Assembly: GCF_051668705.1 (NCBI RefSeq)
Contig: NZ_CP196351.1
Location: 872,020 to 904,019 of the forward strand
Reading direction: 5' to 3'
DNA: 32,000 nucleotides
From: Parasphingorhabdus sp. DH2-15
Lineage (GTDB): Bacteria > Pseudomonadota > Alphaproteobacteria > Sphingomonadales > Sphingomonadaceae
This document shows, piece by piece, positions 3,539 to 32,000 of the stretch (positions are counted from its first letter, which is position 1; each line of letters starts with the position of its first letter). Made by a program: the position numbers and the translations under genes. The notes under the pieces were generated by a model that ran no database searches, was not told where the DNA came from, and saw only the letters and a list, made by a program, of their open reading frames with translations.

Positions 3539-3614
3539 GGGCGATTAGCTCAGTTGGTAGAGCATCTCGTTTACACCGAGAGGGTCGGCAGTTCGAGCCT
3601 GTCATCGCCCACCA
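3539..3614 (+). tRNA. tRNA-Val (anticodon TAC)
   Basis: 76 nt with a cloverleaf by hand. Acceptor GGGCGAT/ATCGCCC; D arm GCTC-AGTTGGTA-GAGC; anticodon stem TCTCG/CGAGA with loop TTTACAC (anticodon TAC); T arm GGCAG-TTCGAGC-CTGTC. Discriminator A and an encoded CCA follow. Confidence 0.92.
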
Positions 3615-24738: not shown

Positions 24739-26403
<1,665 letters not shown>

Positions 26404-26436
26404 CTAGCAATTTCAGTTAGGGATTATGCTTCAGTC

Positions 26437-26724
26437 TCAGCCGATAATGCCGAGAATGTCGCTTTCTTTCATGATGATCAGGTCTTCGCCGTCAACTTTG
26501 ACTTCGGTACCGGACCATTTGCCGAACAAAATCGTGTCGCCAGCTTTAACGTCCAGCGCTGTGACTTTGCCGTTATCGTCTTTCAGACCATTTCCAACAG
26601 CGACCACTTCGCCTTCTGAAGGCTTTTCTTTGGCGCTGTCCGGGATGATGATCCCGCCTGCGGTTTTTTCTTCGGCTTCGATGCGGCGCACCAGAACCCG
26701 ATCATGCAACGGACGAAATTTCAT
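26437..26724 (-). CDS. groES: Co-chaperonin GroES
   Basis: 95 aa. [14 protein letters not shown]...AGGIIIPD...GEVVAVGNG. Confidence 0.97.
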
Positions 26725-26776
26725 GCGTTACCCTTTCTACGGTTGGTTATGACAATGTTGTCGTTTGAAATTAGGA

Positions 26777-26803
26777 TTAGCACTCATATCTAATGAGTGC
26801 CAA
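26777..26803 (-). promoter_or_regulatory. CIRCE operator (HrcA site) upstream of groES
   Basis: The minus strand reads TTGGCACTC-N9-GAGTGCTAA, one mismatch to TTAGCACTC-N9-GAGTGCTAA. It starts 53 nt upstream of the groES start codon. Confidence 0.85.
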
Positions 26804-26812
26804 CACAGGCGC

Positions 26813-26841
26813 ATATGGTCGGAGTGCCGCTTTGCGTCAAG
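26813..26841 (-). promoter_or_regulatory. Candidate sigma32/RpoH-type promoter of groESL
   Basis: The minus strand reads CTTGAC-N17-CCATAT immediately upstream of CIRCE. This resembles the alphaproteobacterial heat-shock consensus CTTG-N17-CYTAT. Confidence 0.5.
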
Positions 26842-26890
26842 GATTGCCTATTAATTTTTTTGATGCACGAAATTTATTTCGCAAGCGGAT

Positions 26891-26917
26891 TGTAACCCAA
26901 AGCTCTTATCTGGCGAA
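26891..26917 (+). promoter_or_regulatory. ECF sigmaF-type promoter TGTAACC-N16-CGAA upstream of the DUF2282 precursor gene
   Basis: tGTAACC (26891-26897), exactly 16 nt, then CGAA (26914-26917), about 80 nt upstream of the ATG at 26996. It matches the GTAACC-N16-CGAA motif I recall for Caulobacter sigmaF targets. No other copy with correct spacing was found on either strand of the window. Confidence 0.6.
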
Positions 26918-26926
26918 ATACGAGGT

Positions 26927-26974
26927 GGAACGTGATATTGGACATTCTGTCCGGCACGTCCTTTTGAACTTTTT
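26927..26974 (+). promoter_or_regulatory. Terminator-like compound hairpin in the leader of the precursor gene
   Basis: GGAaCGTG-atatt-GGACA-ttc-TGTCC-gg-CACGTCC, followed by TTTTgaacTTTTT. It begins only about 10 nt after the CGAA -10 element and ends about 20 nt before the ATG. Confidence 0.4.
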
Positions 26975-26995
26975 AAAAGACCAAAGGAAAAATAC

Positions 26996-27280
26996 ATGGC
27001 TAATACGCTTGTAAAAGTTACTGCAGCTGCCGCTGCTCTGGCTGCTGCCGCCTCTCTGGCTTCTGCTCCTGCCGCTGCGCAATCAAAAGAAAAATGCTAT
27101 GGCATTTCTCTCGCTGGTAAAAATGACTGTGCTGCTGGTCCAGGTACAAGCTGTGCCGGTACATCAACCGTTGATTACCAAGGCAATGCTTGGAAATATG
27201 TTGCTAAAGGCAGCTGCGTAAAACAAGGCGGTTCTTTGAAAGCGCGTAAAGGCAACAAAAAGCCAGTCGCAAGCAAATAA
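26996..27280 (+). CDS. DUF2282-family secreted four-Cys peptide, bufferin-type RiPP precursor (BufA-like)
   Basis: 94 aa. Sec-type signal [29 protein letters not shown], then [51 protein letters not shown] (family signature KEKCYG..AGKNDCA...CAG....G.C), then the Lys-rich tail [13 protein letters not shown]. Confidence 0.85.
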
Positions 27281-27301
27281 TTTTTGCGCTAATGAAATCG
27301 G

Positions 27302-28273
27302 ATGACCTCAACTGCTTATCCTGACCACGCCCAATATGGCGAAAAGTCTGCAAACTATATTGGCCAGAATATTGGTAATCGATTGAATGCATTGCCTTTA
27401 TCGGTTGGTATAGGCTTAAAGCCAGTACATTATCATGATGTTCTGGCTAGTGTGGACGATAAGATAGGCGTCATGGCGCCGGGCTGGGTAGAGGTTCATC
27501 CGCAAAATTATTTCGGTGATGGTGGTCCGCCACATAATTGGCTGACTGCCATCGCCGAACATTTTCCTCTCAGTCTTCATAGTGTTGGCCTGTCAATGGG
27601 CTCTGCCGACGGCGTAAGCCGCTATGATCTGGAGAAGATAGCTGCTTTGTGTGCGCGCTATAACCCGGCAAGTGTTTCTGATCATCTGAGCTGGAGCGGT
27701 CAAACAAGTGATCGTTATCCCGACCTTCTACCTATCCCTTATACTCAGGCGTCATTAGATCATTTTGCACGCCAGATTGATATTGTGCAGGAAAGACTGG
27801 GTCGTACTATCTTGGTGGAGAACCCGTCGCGTTATCTGGGTTATAAAGATGATGTGATGGACGAAATTGATTTCATCCATAAAATATGTGCGGCGACGGG
27901 CTGCGGCCTATTGTTCGATATAAATAATGTTGAGGTCAGTAGCACCAATATGTCTGTTATGGACCCAGAGCATCAAATGCCCGACCCAAGAGATTATATT
28001 GACGCGATCGACCCTGCAATTGTTGGGGAAATCCATTTGGCTGGTCATGCGCGCGAAGACCATGACGATGGGCCTTTGCTCATCGACGATCATGGCAGTG
28101 CAGTAAATGATCTGTGCTGGTCTTTATATGAGCGTTTTATCGCCAGATCCGGACCAAAACCAACATTGATTGAGTGGGACACGGATATACCCGATTATGC
28201 GGTTTTGATGGAGCAGGTCGCAATTGCGCGCTTGATCATGGCCAAAGCACTGCCGCATGAAGATGCTGCATAA
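27302..28273 (+). CDS. DUF692 / MNIO (multinuclear non-heme iron oxidative) enzyme, BufB/MbnB-like
   Basis: 323 aa. SVGIGLKPVHYHDVL, WVEVHPQNYFGDGG, LSLHSVGLSMGS, VSDHLSW, ILVENPSRYL, FDINNVEVS, EIHLAGH, TLIEWD: the TIM-barrel DUF692 pattern. A possible alternative start is TTG at 27383. Confidence 0.85.
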   Translation: MTSTAYPDHAQYGEKSANYIGQNIGNRLNALPLSVGIGLKPVHYHDVLASVDDKIGVMAPGWVEVHPQNYFGDGGPPHNWLTAIAEHFPLSLHSVGLSMGSADGVSRYDLEKIAALCARYNPASVSDHLSWSGQTSDRYPDLLPIPYTQASLDHFARQIDIVQERLGRTILVENPSRYLGYKDDVMDEIDFIHKICAATGCGLLFDINNVEVSSTNMSVMDPEHQMPDPRDYIDAIDPAIVGEIHLAGHAREDHDDGPLLIDDHGSAVNDLCWSLYERFIARSGPKPTLIEWDTDIPDYAVLMEQVAIARLIMAKALPHEDAA

Positions 28274-28285
28274 AGCTGATATATA

Positions 28286-29056
28286 GTGACAAAACCCGAA
28301 AGAGATAATGGTGCCGATCTCTTGGCCAGTGGCCAATCCGGCTTTATGGATGCCTTGCAAAAAGGGCCTGACCATTTGCCATCCAATTTGTTCAGTGGTT
28401 CGCGCTATCGTGCCTTTATTGGCGTAAAGGCCCATGCCAATACTATATCCCATGCACGGCTGGTCGCGCTTGAGGATACATATCCCAGACTGCGGGAGCG
28501 CTTGGGCGATGAGGCATTTAATCAACTGAGCCGCGATTATCTGGAATATGGCGATGTTCGCCAAAATGATATGAATGGTTTGGGGCGAGACTTTGCCGAA
28601 TTTATCGATGCGCAAGGTGTAGATAAAGCCAGCAGTGATTTGGCACATATCGAATGGGCCTGGCTAAAAAGCTATCATGCAGCCGATGCAGAAGCCCTTA
28701 ATATGCAGGATATTGCCGCTCTGGATGAAGCAGCATTGATGGAACTGCCCATCGCTTTGCATCCATCTGTACAGCATATCATGCTGCACGCACCATTGGC
28801 GCCGGAATTGGGGTTGGAAGTGCCCGCAGGTGATCATCTGGCTGCCATTGCGATTGTGCGTCAACAAAATGACGTTTTGCTCTTTCCGCAAACCACTGTG
28901 CAAAAAGATATTTTTATTTGCTGCAAAAATTCGGTACTGATGCGTAACCTTTTGGAATCCGCTGTCGAAACTATAGGGGAGACGCACGCTGTAGAACATA
29001 TTTTTGCTCTTGTTGGGGCAGGGTTTCTAAAGCGTTCGAACAAAAAACAAGACTAA
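28286..29056 (+). CDS. DUF2063-family protein, partner subunit of the MNIO enzyme (BufC-like)
   Basis: 256 aa, GTG start 12 nt after the DUF692 stop. FMDALQKG...YRAFIGVKAHANTISHARLVALEDTYPRLRERLGDEAFNQLSRDYL is the typical DUF2063 N-domain. Confidence 0.8.
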   Translation: MTKPERDNGADLLASGQSGFMDALQKGPDHLPSNLFSGSRYRAFIGVKAHANTISHARLVALEDTYPRLRERLGDEAFNQLSRDYLEYGDVRQNDMNGLGRDFAEFIDAQGVDKASSDLAHIEWAWLKSYHAADAEALNMQDIAALDEAALMELPIALHPSVQHIMLHAPLAPELGLEVPAGDHLAAIAIVRQQNDVLLFPQTTVQKDIFICCKNSVLMRNLLESAVETIGETHAVEHIFALVGAGFLKRSNKKQD

Positions 29057-29134
29057 CGATTGCAGCGGCTGATCAGACCATGGCTTCGACTATTTGGGCC
29101 TGCTGTTGGCCAGATTGTAAAATGGGACAATATA

Positions 29135-29590
29135 ATGAAAAATCTAATTTCAAAAATCGAAACTCTGACCGCAAACCCGTTTTTGGTGAGTGTCTTTTTG
29201 CTTCTAACACGGATTACACTAGGTGGCATCTTCTGGCGCTCGGCTACAACCCGCTTCGAAGAGGGTAGCTGGACCACATTGAATGAGAACGCAATTTACC
29301 AGTTTTCCGATGTTCCTTTTAATCAGGTGCCCGTGATTAACGGCGAATTTGGCGCGTATTTCACGACATTCAGTGAATTGGCGGTATCCATTTTATTGTT
29401 CCTTGGCTTCGCGACACGCCTGAGCGCTCTGGCAACCATTGGTATGATGAGTGTAATTCAGATTTTTGTCTTCCCGACTATCCCGCACCTTTGGGGCGTA
29501 GTCTTTATGTGGGCAATCATGGCGATTGTCCTTGTTGCGAAAGGTGGTGGAATGTTCTCAATCGACCGTCTGTTCACCAAAGCAGGATAA
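29135..29590 (+). CDS. DoxX-family inner-membrane protein
   Basis: MKNLISKIETLTANPFLVSVFLLLTRITLGGIFWRSA followed by four hydrophobic helices. The track ORF starts at TTG 29060, but I prefer the ATG at 29135. Confidence 0.75.
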   Translation: MKNLISKIETLTANPFLVSVFLLLTRITLGGIFWRSATTRFEEGSWTTLNENAIYQFSDVPFNQVPVINGEFGAYFTTFSELAVSILLFLGFATRLSALATIGMMSVIQIFVFPTIPHLWGVVFMWAIMAIVLVAKGGGMFSIDRLFTKAG

Positions 29591-29615
29591 TTCCGCTAAC
29601 TGCTTGATTGCAAAG

Positions 29616-29648
29616 TCCGGTTGGTCATCGTGACCCGCCGGATTTTTG
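29616..29648 (+). terminator. Rho-independent terminator after the DoxX gene
   Basis: TCCGG-tt-GGTCA-tcg-TGACC-cg-CCGGA followed by TTTTT. Confidence 0.75.
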
Positions 29649-29765
29649 CTAGAGAAGGAAGTGAATTTTGTTTCTTGCCAATTGTTTCGGGATGATGTGT
29701 AAGCGATAATGTTTTAAAAGGCTGCACATCTTGCAGTAAATAATGGGCATCGGATCACCCCTCTT

Positions 29766-30293
29766 ATGGCAGCAAATGAAGATAGCCTCAGGCATCTTAT
29801 GACTAAGGCGCAACAGGGTGACAAACGCTCTTATGCACTGCTGTTAGAGGAATGCCAAAAATGGTTGAAGCGCTATTATGCGCGCAAAATCCCCCCTGCC
29901 GCACTTGATGATCTGGTGCAAGAGACCTTGATTTCCGTCCATAGAAAATTGTCCAGCTATGACCCTTCAAGGCCTTTCTTGCCTTGGCTGGCGGCTATTG
30001 GCCGCTATCGCTGGATCGATCATTTGCGCAAAGTGTATCGCGCTGACGAAACCGGTTTAGAAGAAGAACTGTTGGCAGACCCTGCTGAAGAGCCGGTTTC
30101 TGCTAAAGTGAGTCTCGACAAATTATTGGATATGCTGCCGGAAAAACAGGCATCTGTTATACGCATGGTGAAAATCCAGGGCCTTTCCATTACGGAGGCA
30201 GCGGCAATGACCGGCCAATCGGAATCTCTTGTGAAGGTGAATGTGCATAGGGGCATAAAAAAAATGAATGTTTTGGTAGAAAATTCTGAGTAA
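29766..30293 (+). CDS. ECF (group IV) RNA polymerase sigma factor, SigF-like
   Basis: 175 aa. Region 2: LDDLVQETLISVHRKLSSYDPSRPFLPWLAAIGRYRWIDHLRK. Region 4: LPEKQASVIRMVKIQGLSITEAAAMTGQSESLVKVNVHRGIKKM. Confidence 0.88.
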   Translation: MAANEDSLRHLMTKAQQGDKRSYALLLEECQKWLKRYYARKIPPAALDDLVQETLISVHRKLSSYDPSRPFLPWLAAIGRYRWIDHLRKVYRADETGLEEELLADPAEEPVSAKVSLDKLLDMLPEKQASVIRMVKIQGLSITEAAAMTGQSESLVKVNVHRGIKKMNVLVENSE

Positions 30294-30441
30294 GTGTAAC
30301 TTTATCAGAATCTGCACGAATATCAGATATAGAATATCCTCTGATTGTGTTTGCAAGATTGGGAAGATGAAAGTTTGAAGCAGCTATTAGGCACTAGATA
30401 TGGCCTTAAAGCCTTGAAAATATGGAATTGAGTAAACGAAT

Positions 30442-31134
30442 ATGACAACATCTCAGGGAAATGGCGGTACCAAACAGCCATTTAGCATTGATGATCTCGT
30501 TGCTGATCTGACACCTGTGAATCCGGTGCGGATCCGTGATGGTATCGCTATGGCACTTGCGTTGACACTGTTTATTAGTGTGGCAATTTCCTTCTATCTC
30601 GGTATCCGTAGCGGCCTTGCTGCAGGAAATTTTGAGACGATTTTTGTCGCACGTACATTCGCGCTTCTGGCGCTTGGCGGTGTTAGCGCTTATGCGGCTA
30701 TGTCGCTTGCTCGTCCCGCTGTAGATACAAATCTGCGAAAAGTTGAAACCATGGCCTCACGCACGGTTTTGGGTATTTCTTCGGTTTTTCCAGTTCTTGC
30801 TTTGATTTATTTCTTTGCAGATATGCCGCGCAGCAGCGTTGAGGCCGTAGCAATTTTTGACCCATCAATTGGCCGTGAATGCCTTACTTATAGTGGCCTT
30901 TCTGCTCTTGCTATTGGTAGTGCCATAACTGTCTGGTTGCGTCGCGGTGCGGTTGTTTCACCTGAGCGTGCTGGTTGGTTGACTGGTCTTGCAGCTGGTG
31001 GCTTTGGTGCAGCAGCCTATAGCTTATTCTGCCCAATGGACAGCGTGGTTTATATCGGCACATGGTTCACAATGGCCGTTGCTATGGCCGCGGTTGCCGG
31101 ACGTTTGGCGGTTCCATCGCTGCTACGCTGGTAA
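30442..31134 (+). CDS. DUF1109 / NrsF-family six-TM anti-sigma factor
   Basis: 230 aa. N-terminus IDDLVADLTPVNPVR, then six hydrophobic helices. Two Cys (GRECLTY, LFCPMD) fall in predicted periplasm-facing loops. Confidence 0.8.
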   Translation: MTTSQGNGGTKQPFSIDDLVADLTPVNPVRIRDGIAMALALTLFISVAISFYLGIRSGLAAGNFETIFVARTFALLALGGVSAYAAMSLARPAVDTNLRKVETMASRTVLGISSVFPVLALIYFFADMPRSSVEAVAIFDPSIGRECLTYSGLSALAIGSAITVWLRRGAVVSPERAGWLTGLAAGGFGAAAYSLFCPMDSVVYIGTWFTMAVAMAAVAGRLAVPSLLRW

Positions 31135-31167
31135 GTATAAACGACCAAAACATCATTATAATCGATT

Positions 31168-31193
31168 AAAGGGGCTGCTATGCCCCTTTTTTC
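31168..31193 (+). terminator. Rho-independent terminator after the anti-sigma gene
   Basis: AAAGGGGC-tgctat-GCCCCTTT followed by TTTC. Confidence 0.8.
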
Positions 31194-31277
31194 TTGCCTA
31201 ACTGTGCAATATATCCCTTATGCGTTATGAAAAGCCTGATCTAGAGAGTGATTGGGGCAATAGGGGTTATTATTAAG

Positions 31278-32000
31278 ATGGCATTTGTCAAAGGCGCTTG
31301 GTCTATTCTGGTGGGCATTAAGGACGCATTGGTTCTTATTTTCATGCTCATATTTTTCGTTGTTTTGCTGAGTGTTTTGTCGAGCAAACCAAATCCTGCA
31401 TCTGTGCAGGAGGGTGCTTTATTATTCACACTAGACGGTGTGATTGTCGAGGAAAAGTCGGATATTGACCCTTTGACGGCCCTAACATCTGGTGCGCAGC
31501 CCATCAAAGAATTTCGTTTGCGAGATGTTGTTCGCGCCCTTGAAGGTGCAGTGGATGATGATGCCGTTAAGGTCGTTGTTTTGGACCTTGACCGTTTCCT
31601 TGGCGGCGGACAGGCCAGTATGGAAAATATCGGTGATGCTATTGCCAAAGTTCGCAAGGCGGGAAAGCCGGTTATGGCCTTTGCGACAGGCTATAGCGAT
31701 AGTGGATATCAGCTTGCCGCCCATGCGAGTGAAATCTGGATGGACCCGCTGGGGGGTGTCGTTGCGGCTGGATCAGGTGGAAACCGGCTTTATTATAAAG
31801 ACCTGATCGACCGGCTGAAAATCACAACTCACATCTATAAGGTTGGAACTTATAAAAGCGCAGTCGAGCCTTATGCGCGTAATGATCAATCGGAAGAAGC
31901 CAAAGAAGCATTGAAGGCGGTATATGATGCATTGTGGGATCGCTATTTGTACGATGTAGAAGAAGCCCGGCCAGCAGCGGGGCTGCGAGAATATACCTTG
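31278..32000 (+). CDS. sppA: Signal peptide peptidase SppA (67K type), 5' partial, running off the window
   Basis: Hand-translated open frame: MAFVKGAWSILVGIKDALVLIFMLIFFVVLLSVL...VKVVVLDLDRFLGGGQASMENIGDAIAKVRKAGKPVMAFATGYSDSGYQLAAHASEIWMDPLGG...YKVGTYKSAVEPY. It is absent from the track because no stop lies in the window. Track ORF 31241..31657 (-) is its antisense shadow. Confidence 0.85.
   Translation, partial: MAFVKGAWSILVGIKDALVLIFMLIFFVVLLSVLSSKPNPASVQEGALLFTLDGVIVEEKSDIDPLTALTSGAQPIKEFRLRDVVRALEGAVDDDAVKVVVLDLDRFLGGGQASMENIGDAIAKVRKAGKPVMAFATGYSDSGYQLAAHASEIWMDPLGGVVAAGSGGNRLYYKDLIDRLKITTHIYKVGTYKSAVEPYARNDQSEEAKEALKAVYDALWDRYLYDVEEARPAAGLREYTL

Follow-up and report, generated by a model that had tools for sequence, protein, structure and literature searches.

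A probable Buf1-type bufferin gene cluster of Parasphingorhabdus sp. DH2-15 with its own ECF16 sigma factor and a predicted SigF-type promoter inside bufC

We analysed a stretch of 32,000 nucleotides (nt) of DNA, hereafter the window, whose source was identified by exact-sequence look-up as Parasphingorhabdus sp. DH2-15, and focused on the six genes found at its positions 26891-31134. These genes very probably make up a Buf1-type bufferin gene cluster, bufABCD, joined to its own extracytoplasmic function (ECF) sigma factor of the ECF16 (SigF-like) group and to the corresponding NrsF anti-sigma factor. This degree of confidence applies to the explanation as a whole, i.e. the cluster, its control by the sigma factor and NrsF, and three predicted promoters designated P1, P2 and P3. 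Among these, P2 appears to be a lineage-specific SigF-type promoter embedded in the coding sequence of bufC, the activity of which we infer from the pattern of conservation of the sequence. As far as the searched literature shows, such an embedded promoter and the nested bufD-sigF-nrsF unit that it would transcribe in many relatives are undescribed: nothing relevant came up when studies of bufferins or DUF2282 in sphingomonads, or ECF promoters of the embedded kind, were looked for. Both are of moderate specialist interest.

The bufferin cluster and its predicted SigF-type control

All six open reading frames lie on the + strand in the order bufA-bufB-bufC-bufD-sigF-nrsF, and the intergenic gaps within bufABCD are 21, 12 and 78 nt. 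An earlier reading of the window made from the sequence alone (the sequence-only reading) had placed six co-directional genes at these positions with exactly these gaps, and the families to which it had assigned their products were recovered when the proteins were compared with Pfam profile hidden Markov models: DUF2282, DUF692, DUF2063, DoxX, Sigma70_r2/r4 and DUF1109 were all matched, the matches of all six proteins exceeding the curated cut-offs. The literature bears out the connections that it had drawn with bufferins, the gig operon and the SigF/NrsF regulon (PMC11626156, PMC12452194), and the SigF promoter consensus known from Caulobacter (PMC3511200) is present upstream of bufA in the window. 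In Caulobacter, buf1ABCD adjoins sigF-nrsF and lies within the SigF regulon (PMC11626156), and a later survey reports that sigma factor and NrsF genes occur in Buf1 clusters (PMC12452194).

To place the locus among its relatives, one genome per species was scanned, which yielded 80 Sphingomonadales loci encoding BufB relatives; bufC could be examined in 79 of them, window included. The identical co-directional order of six genes was found in 74 of these 79 loci. Moreover, NCBI already names the DH2-15 proteins 'BufA1 family periplasmic bufferin-type metallophore', 'MNIO family bufferin maturase', 'HvfC/BufC family peptide modification chaperone', 'DoxX family protein', sigma-70 family factor and 'NrsF family protein'. 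There is thus little new in the cluster itself, since its proteins are named and its layout is common across Sphingomonadales, and the view of the sequence-only reading that this was the least-explored element of the window proved overstated, all the more as the association of sigma factor and NrsF genes with Buf1 clusters is published.

The precursor gene bufA (26996-27280, + strand) encodes a protein of 94 amino acids (aa) that belongs to the NCBI BufA1 family and matches Pfam DUF2282 with 83.6 bits. As the sequence-only reading had it, this is a four-cysteine DUF2282 precursor: Cys34, Cys45, Cys53 and Cys74 are spaced by 11, 8 and 21 residues, a spacing identical to that of Cys12, 23, 31 and 52 of Caulobacter Buf1, and they are kept in 79-80 of the 80 sequences. 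EGKCG repeats are missing from the protein. Inspected heuristically, the signal-like N-terminus contains Lys7; residues 4-28 form a hydrophobic Ala/Leu stretch, and Gln29 is preceded by several AxA motifs. A tandem duplication of bufA upstream of bufB was observed in three Erythrobacteraceae-like relatives (L033, 4774-5390; L059, 5382-5951; L068, 5275-5946).

The next gene, bufB (27302-28273, + strand), encodes an MNIO (DUF692) maturase of 323 aa, which scores 294.9 bits against Pfam MbnB_TglH_ChrH (PF05114) and passes the NCBIfam equivalog NF050167 MNIO_BufB with 320.5 bits for a cut-off of 310. Models of other maturases fit far less well, i.e. 186.4 bits for HvfB (cut-off 360) and 39.4 bits for MbnB (cut-off 325), with ApyH far below threshold; the HvfC model gave 23 bits for a cut-off of 142, and neither MbnA nor MbnC is present. 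BufB can be aligned to the DUF692 structure 3BWW, the blocks containing His, Asp and Glu lining up. At its N-terminus (27302-27390) the protein carries an extension of about 28 residues that is found only in the two closest relatives (L001 and L002); in other sphingomonads the match begins near residue 29 and the bufA-bufB gap is longer.

The partner protein encoded by bufC (28286-29056, + strand) has 256 aa and combines a DUF2063 domain (Pfam, 42.4 bits, residues 17-107) with an RRE-like domain. No match was obtained in a PDB sequence search with BufC, and comparison of folds was therefore needed instead. The AlphaFold2 model (pLDDT 92) consists of two domains, a helical N-terminal DUF2063 domain and a C-terminal domain made of beta-strands and three helices. 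In Foldseek it is most similar to NGO1945 (3DEE) and to TglI (8HCI_A), the partner of an MNIO, matches to RRE being weaker. The fourth gene, bufD (29135-29590, + strand), encodes a DoxX-family membrane protein (Pfam DoxX, 48.2 bits), also called DoxX by NCBI with the same length of 151 aa.

The regulatory genes follow on the same strand. The SigF-like sigma factor (29766-30293, + strand, 175 aa) contains Sigma70_r2 (47.3 bits) and Sigma70_r4_2 (47.2 bits) and no further domains. NCBI calls a form of 164 aa that begins at 29799; the first 11 residues of the 175-aa form are kept in 14 relatives, which makes the ATG at 29766 the likelier start. Located 148 nt downstream, nrsF (30442-31134, + strand) encodes a DUF1109 anti-sigma factor of 230 aa whose Pfam NrsF match (127.3 bits) spans positions 1-204 of the 204 of the model. 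Two cysteines 50 residues apart, Cys147 and Cys197, are kept in all 72 sequences compared. The same spacing separates C131 and C181 of Caulobacter NrsF, which are needed for control there (PMC3511200), and also C129 and C179 of Brucella AbcS. A putative six-transmembrane topology was checked heuristically by Kyte-Doolittle hydropathy, which gave four clear peaks and weaker Ala/Gly-rich segments.

The SigF promoter of Caulobacter has been experimentally defined as GTAACC-N16-CGAA (PMC3511200), which is equivalent to the ECF16 consensus (T/C)GTAAC-N17-CGAA. Two exact copies occur in the window where 0.03 would be expected, both on the + strand, one ahead of bufA and the other ahead of bufD. The former is P1, a predicted SigF/ECF16-type promoter reading TGTAACC-N16-CGAA at 26891-26917 (consensus 26892-26917); its leading T coincides with the position at which the sequence-only reading had the locus begin. 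P1 lies 78 nt from the bufA ATG; for comparison, the start site mapped in Caulobacter is 61 nt upstream of bufA1. Among relatives the site is exact in 67 of 76 loci and has one mismatch in eight more, at a median distance of 70 nt from the bufA start, and the 67 exact sites comprise 65 distinct sequences with variable spacers. A scan for sigma-70 promoters over 26300-32000 was uninformative (14 sites, against 9.2 +/- 2.9 in shuffled sequences).

As for the signal, the cluster might have the same parts and a different trigger or role: the sigma factor and NrsF would then sense oxidants, reactive chlorine species, chromate or cadmium, and the peptide would have a broader function in redox or thiol stress. 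We regard this alternative as unlikely, albeit worth serious consideration. ECF16/NrsF systems are responsive to hypochlorite in the case of Brucella and Azospira and, in that of Bradyrhizobium, to reactive oxygen species (PMC4436054), and SigF/NrsF of Caulobacter responds to chromate and cadmium (PMC3511200). In addition, when three gammaproteobacteria were subjected to transposon fitness screens, DUF692/DUF2063 operons mattered for resistance to chlorite, and homologues of DoxX have been tied to oxidative and sulphur stress. Copper is favoured, however, by the induction of Caulobacter buf1 and buf2 by Cu and not by Fe, Zn or Mn, and by the properties of Caulobacter Buf1, which binds copper with dissociation constants of ~6e-15 M for Cu(II) and ~7e-20 M for Cu(I) and protects against it (PMC11626156); the BufA of DH2-15 has the same four-cysteine core. 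The copper reading and an oxidant or metal trigger of this kind are not mutually exclusive.

P2, a predicted promoter inside bufC

The second exact copy of the consensus, P2 (28944-28969, + strand), is located 165 nt upstream of the bufD ATG and still inside the 3' end of bufC, where it occupies codons 220-228 (R-N-L-L-E-S-A-V-E). Counting the window, 75 of the 79 loci have an exact copy of the site, always in the identical codon phase. Its ten specified bases are thus nearly invariant despite the divergence of BufC, whose pairwise identity among these loci is about 45 % (range 32-94 %).

Codon usage within P2 departs strongly from that of the same loci. The Asn codon is AAC in 75 of 76 sequences, compared with 48 % of Asn codons in these loci; the Leu codon is CTT in 72 of 76, for a background of 11.5 %; and the Glu codon is GAA in 75 of 76, for a background of 64 %. 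Where the amino acid changes, the specified bases persist: the first codon encodes Gly (62 sequences), Arg (7) or Cys (7) and has GT at its second and third positions in 75/76 sequences, and the codon before the final GAA encodes Ile, Leu, Val or Gly with C as third base in 75/76. Only 7 of the 229 third codon positions of bufC are conserved at a level of at least 95 %, five of which are in P2 and the two others in Trp codons. The longest highly conserved nucleotide run of the gene is GTAACCTT.

A protein search with BufC returned sphingomonad-type BufC only among the 120 matches listed. The bufC genes of eight plasmid loci, from Paracoccus, Agrobacterium, Paroceanicella, Burkholderia, Aminobacter, Paraburkholderia, Pseudomonas and Ralstonia, served as outgroups. 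The P2 motif is absent from all eight outgroup bufC genes, in which the aligned residues read LGxAxxxAxA, and several of these loci do have P1-like sites upstream of bufA. In one of them, the Paraburkholderia plasmid locus (L087, 3260-7348), the genes stand in the order sigma factor, DUF1109, DUF2282, DUF692, DUF2063 and a second DUF1109 gene, which takes the usual position of DoxX, and an exact GTAACC-N16-CGAA is located upstream of bufA.

It is improbable, in our judgement, that P2 is no promoter at all and that the string is kept by constraint on the BufC protein or by some other function of the nucleic acid, such as RNA structure or the site of another factor. In the BufC model the residues encoded by P2 do lie in a well-folded domain, the RRE-like one, within a predicted helix that comprises residues 219-230, and Asn221, Leu222, Leu223 and Glu228 are nearly invariant among sphingomonad BufC proteins. 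Yet synonymous third positions are among the conserved bases, which stay the same where amino acids are replaced, the codon choice is strongly off background, the ten bases and the 16-nt spacing are identical to those of P1 and of the experimentally defined SigF promoter, and the outgroup BufC proteins do without these residues. Protein constraint as the cause of the conservation was rejected on the codon analysis and the outgroup comparison. The conservation of synonymous sites and its persistence across amino-acid changes argue instead for selection on the DNA of P2, which is consistent with an embedded SigF-type promoter.

Transcript layout of bufD, sigF and nrsF

The consequences of P2 depend on the genes downstream. 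In 63 loci nrsF abuts sigF, with bufD-sigF gaps of -3 to 25 nt, and bufD and sigF, which abut for instance in Parasphingorhabdus flavimaris, either lie 5-25 nt apart or have a 4-nt overlap in the majority of loci. With the three genes abutting in this way, P2 would transcribe a nested bufD-sigF-nrsF unit, and sigF would be subject to positive autoregulation, which is typical of ECF sigma factors.

The layout differs in the window. The bufD-sigF spacer is 175 nt long and contains a terminator-like hairpin followed by a U-run (29610-29649, + strand), which begins 20 nt after the bufD stop and folds with -31.7 kcal/mol (z = -4.79); none of 200 shuffled sequences folds as well. A spacer of this kind is particular to the lineage that DH2-15 forms with L001 and L002, the hairpin being conserved in L001 and not clearly in L002. 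An intrinsic terminator follows nrsF (31168-31197, + strand): its 8-bp stem (31168-31189) with five G-C pairs is succeeded by the T-run TTTTTTCTT, and it folds with -16.9 kcal/mol (z = -3.4). The organisation into two terminator-delimited units put forward by the sequence-only reading thus applies to the window, at 29610-29649 and 31168-31189. It does not extend to a general layout and is a peculiarity of this lineage, as bufD, sigF and nrsF abut in most relatives.

A third site, P3 (30295-30320, + strand), starts 2 nt past the sigF stop, where the 148-nt spacer between sigF and nrsF begins, and reads TGTAACT-N15-CGAA, a near-consensus SigF-type site with one mismatch and a 15-nt spacer. L001 and L002 retain both of its boxes, with a spacer of different sequence. 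In addition, 11 of the 12 loci whose sigF-nrsF gap exceeds 60 nt carry, right at the stop codon of sigF, a site with no more than one mismatch, for a chance expectation below 0.01 in such a region; in the Blastomonas group the TAA stop of sigF falls within GTAACC itself. On account of these conserved boxes and of the recurrence of the site in spacer-bearing loci, P3 is a plausible SigF-dependent promoter for nrsF that would provide negative feedback, a proposal on which our opinion is evenly balanced. The 148-nt spacer folds no more stably than shuffled sequences (z = +0.67), hence no structured RNA is proposed between sigF and nrsF.

Several observations weigh against the regulatory part of our explanation. 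Within the interval directly ahead of sigF (29591-29765) no SigF-type site was found, the best candidate having two mismatches and overlapping the hairpin, so that the nearest such site upstream of sigF is P2 in bufC. The hairpin after bufD may halt P2 transcripts before they reach sigF, in which case P2 serves only bufD here; taken with the 175-nt spacer and the missing SigF site, it suggests that P2 may serve mainly bufD in the window. Three relatives devoid of sigF-nrsF, in which bufD is directly followed by sppA, keep P2, which consequently cannot exist for autoregulation alone; the invariant target of P2 would rather be the expression of bufD. P3 departs from the consensus in both its GTAACT box and its 15-nt spacer, and about one such match per window is expected by chance. 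Finally, the searched literature contained no transcript, transcription-start or metal-response data for DH2-15 or any sphingomonad. At 29675-29703 there is a TTGCCA-N17-TGTAAG pair that both of the closest relatives retain; we do not claim it as the sigF promoter because its -10 box is poor.

That the six genes are simply one operon read from P1, the internal sites and the hairpin being irrelevant, is very doubtful: all six genes are co-directional and most relatives leave no room for a terminator between bufD, sigF and nrsF, but the window has a stable hairpin with a U-run after bufD and spacers of 175 and 148 nt between its last three genes, purifying selection clearly acts on P2 as DNA, and a sigma factor made only from its own target promoter could not initiate a response from zero.

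Two further loci differ in arrangement. In L027 (8267-10138) the flanks are groESL and sppA as in the window and sigF-nrsF is missing, which indicates that the pair was gained or lost precisely between bufD and sppA. On a replicon of Sphingobium sp. V4 (L090, 2376-6205), bufA-doxX is divergent from sigF-nrsF, the MNIO gene is located further downstream, and three exact GTAACC-N16-CGAA sites are present, all intergenic and one of them directly upstream of sigF.

Regarding the surroundings of the locus in the window, groESL lies upstream of bufA, with groES at 26437-26724 on the minus strand. The inverted repeat TTAGCACTC-N9-GAGTGCCAA at 26777-26803, 53 nt upstream of groES, agrees with the consensus in 17 of 18 bases and is one that we take to be CIRCE-like; HrcA probably uses it as the operator of groESL. 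The repeat shares one intergenic region with P1. Downstream of nrsF, an open reading frame for a signal-peptide-peptidase (SppA)-like protein is located at 31280-32000 (+ strand). The remainder of the window is core chromosome, with genes for a photolyase-related protein, argininosuccinate lyase, a diaminopimelate-decarboxylase-like protein, DNA polymerase I, MlaA, and GGDEF and EAL proteins, together with a tRNA-Val gene (anticodon TAC) at 3539-3614. This tRNA-Val (3539-3611) was the sole match in an Rfam scan of the whole window at gathering thresholds, which means that no known RNA element was detected in the leaders and spacers of the locus.

Proposed mechanism and comparison with known systems

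Promoter activity, inducing signal and peptide chemistry at the locus are what we infer chiefly by analogy with Caulobacter. NrsF would hold the sigma factor at the membrane until periplasmic metal or oxidant stress, sensed through Cys147 and Cys197 of NrsF, frees it; the freed sigma factor would then start transcription at P1 and give rise to a bufABCD message. BufB, as an iron-dependent MNIO oxidase, and BufC would convert Cys45 and Cys53 of BufA into 5-thiooxazoles, as established for Caulobacter Buf1, in which CysII and CysIII become 5-thiooxazoles, CysI and CysIV form a disulfide, and Cu(II) and Cu(I) are bound in the periplasm (PMC11626156). The BufA peptide would be exported by the Sec pathway, acquire a Cys34-Cys74 disulfide and, once folded, chelate excess copper in the periplasm. 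In most Sphingomonadales, P2 would add the nested bufD-sigF-nrsF unit within the operon and thereby positive autoregulation of sigF; in the DH2-15 lineage, P3 might place nrsF under SigF control and so create negative feedback.

A more speculative proposal, which we hold to be improbable, concerns DoxX, which is dispensable for Buf1 modification and copper protection in Caulobacter (PMC11626156). DoxX might be part of the sensing module, e.g. by resetting the periplasmic cysteines of NrsF as their quinone-linked redox partner. In Sphingomonadales a SigF autoregulatory promoter would then have been written into the frame of bufC, turning the helix LGxAxxxAxA of the RRE-like domain into xNLLxxxxE, and the promoter in bufC would cause DoxX to share its transcript, and often its translation by coupling, with the sigma and anti-sigma factors and not only with the biosynthetic enzymes. 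Membership of the sensing module would explain why DoxX can be dispensed with for maturation and copper protection.

If active, P2 would constitute a clean natural case of a promoter overlapping a coding sequence, with a measurable cost in protein sequence. It suggests that sphingomonads wire the autoregulation of a sigma factor via a nested bufD-sigF-nrsF unit and gives a hint on the unexplained role of DoxX in bufferin clusters. The specific start regions predicted at P1, P2 and P3 should also be useful for work on ECF16 and bufferins in marine sphingomonads.

The closest known system is similar in gene content and differs in promoter placement. Caulobacter vibrioides buf1ABCD (CCNA_03363-03366) likewise comprises a four-cysteine DUF2282 precursor, an MNIO, a DUF2063 protein and DoxX, and shares with DH2-15 an ECF16 sigma factor, a DUF1109 anti-sigma factor with two cysteines, a consensus site upstream of bufA and regulator genes adjoining the cluster. 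However, the sigF operon of Caulobacter has its own mapped SigF-type promoter and no internal bufC1 promoter has been reported there, whereas in DH2-15 the sigma site is embedded in bufC, none stands directly before sigF, and a near-consensus one precedes nrsF. Also unlike in Caulobacter, the six genes of DH2-15 are co-directional.

Gold or copper induces two homologous clusters of four genes each, gigPABT of Cupriavidus metallidurans and the GIG operon of Legionella pneumophila. Cupriavidus likewise has a sigma/anti-sigma pair of the ECF16 group, rpoQ-rsqA, adjoining gig, but it is encoded on the opposite strand, and dependence of gig on RpoQ was not demonstrable there. The ECF16 consensus given in a transcription-start study of Cupriavidus (-35 AATTCG, -10 GGTTAC) is the reverse complement of GTAACC...CGAATT, which might explain the missing ECF16 motif at gig and rpoQ in that study (PMC13492112, Table 4).

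Other ECF16 systems, i.e. Brucella BcrS/AbcS, Azospira SigF/NrsF and Bradyrhizobium EcfF/OsrA, have in common with DH2-15 the family of the sigma factor, the (T/C)GTAAC-N17-CGAA promoter and a DUF1109 anti-sigma factor with two conserved cysteines and a six-transmembrane topology, the latter being putative in DH2-15. Their targets differ, as they consist of a methionine-rich peptide and Msr that act in defence against hypochlorite or reactive oxygen species, with no MNIO cluster. Regarding the chemistry, Haemophilus HvfABC, which makes oxazolin, and MbnABC, which makes methanobactin, resemble the DH2-15 cluster in that an MNIO and its partner turn peptide cysteines into copper-binding heterocycles. 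Their precursors are unlike BufA, the one of HvfABC having EGKCG repeats and that of methanobactin being MbnA, and methanobactins are secreted for copper acquisition, as opposed to the periplasmic buffering that we propose for the bufferin of DH2-15.

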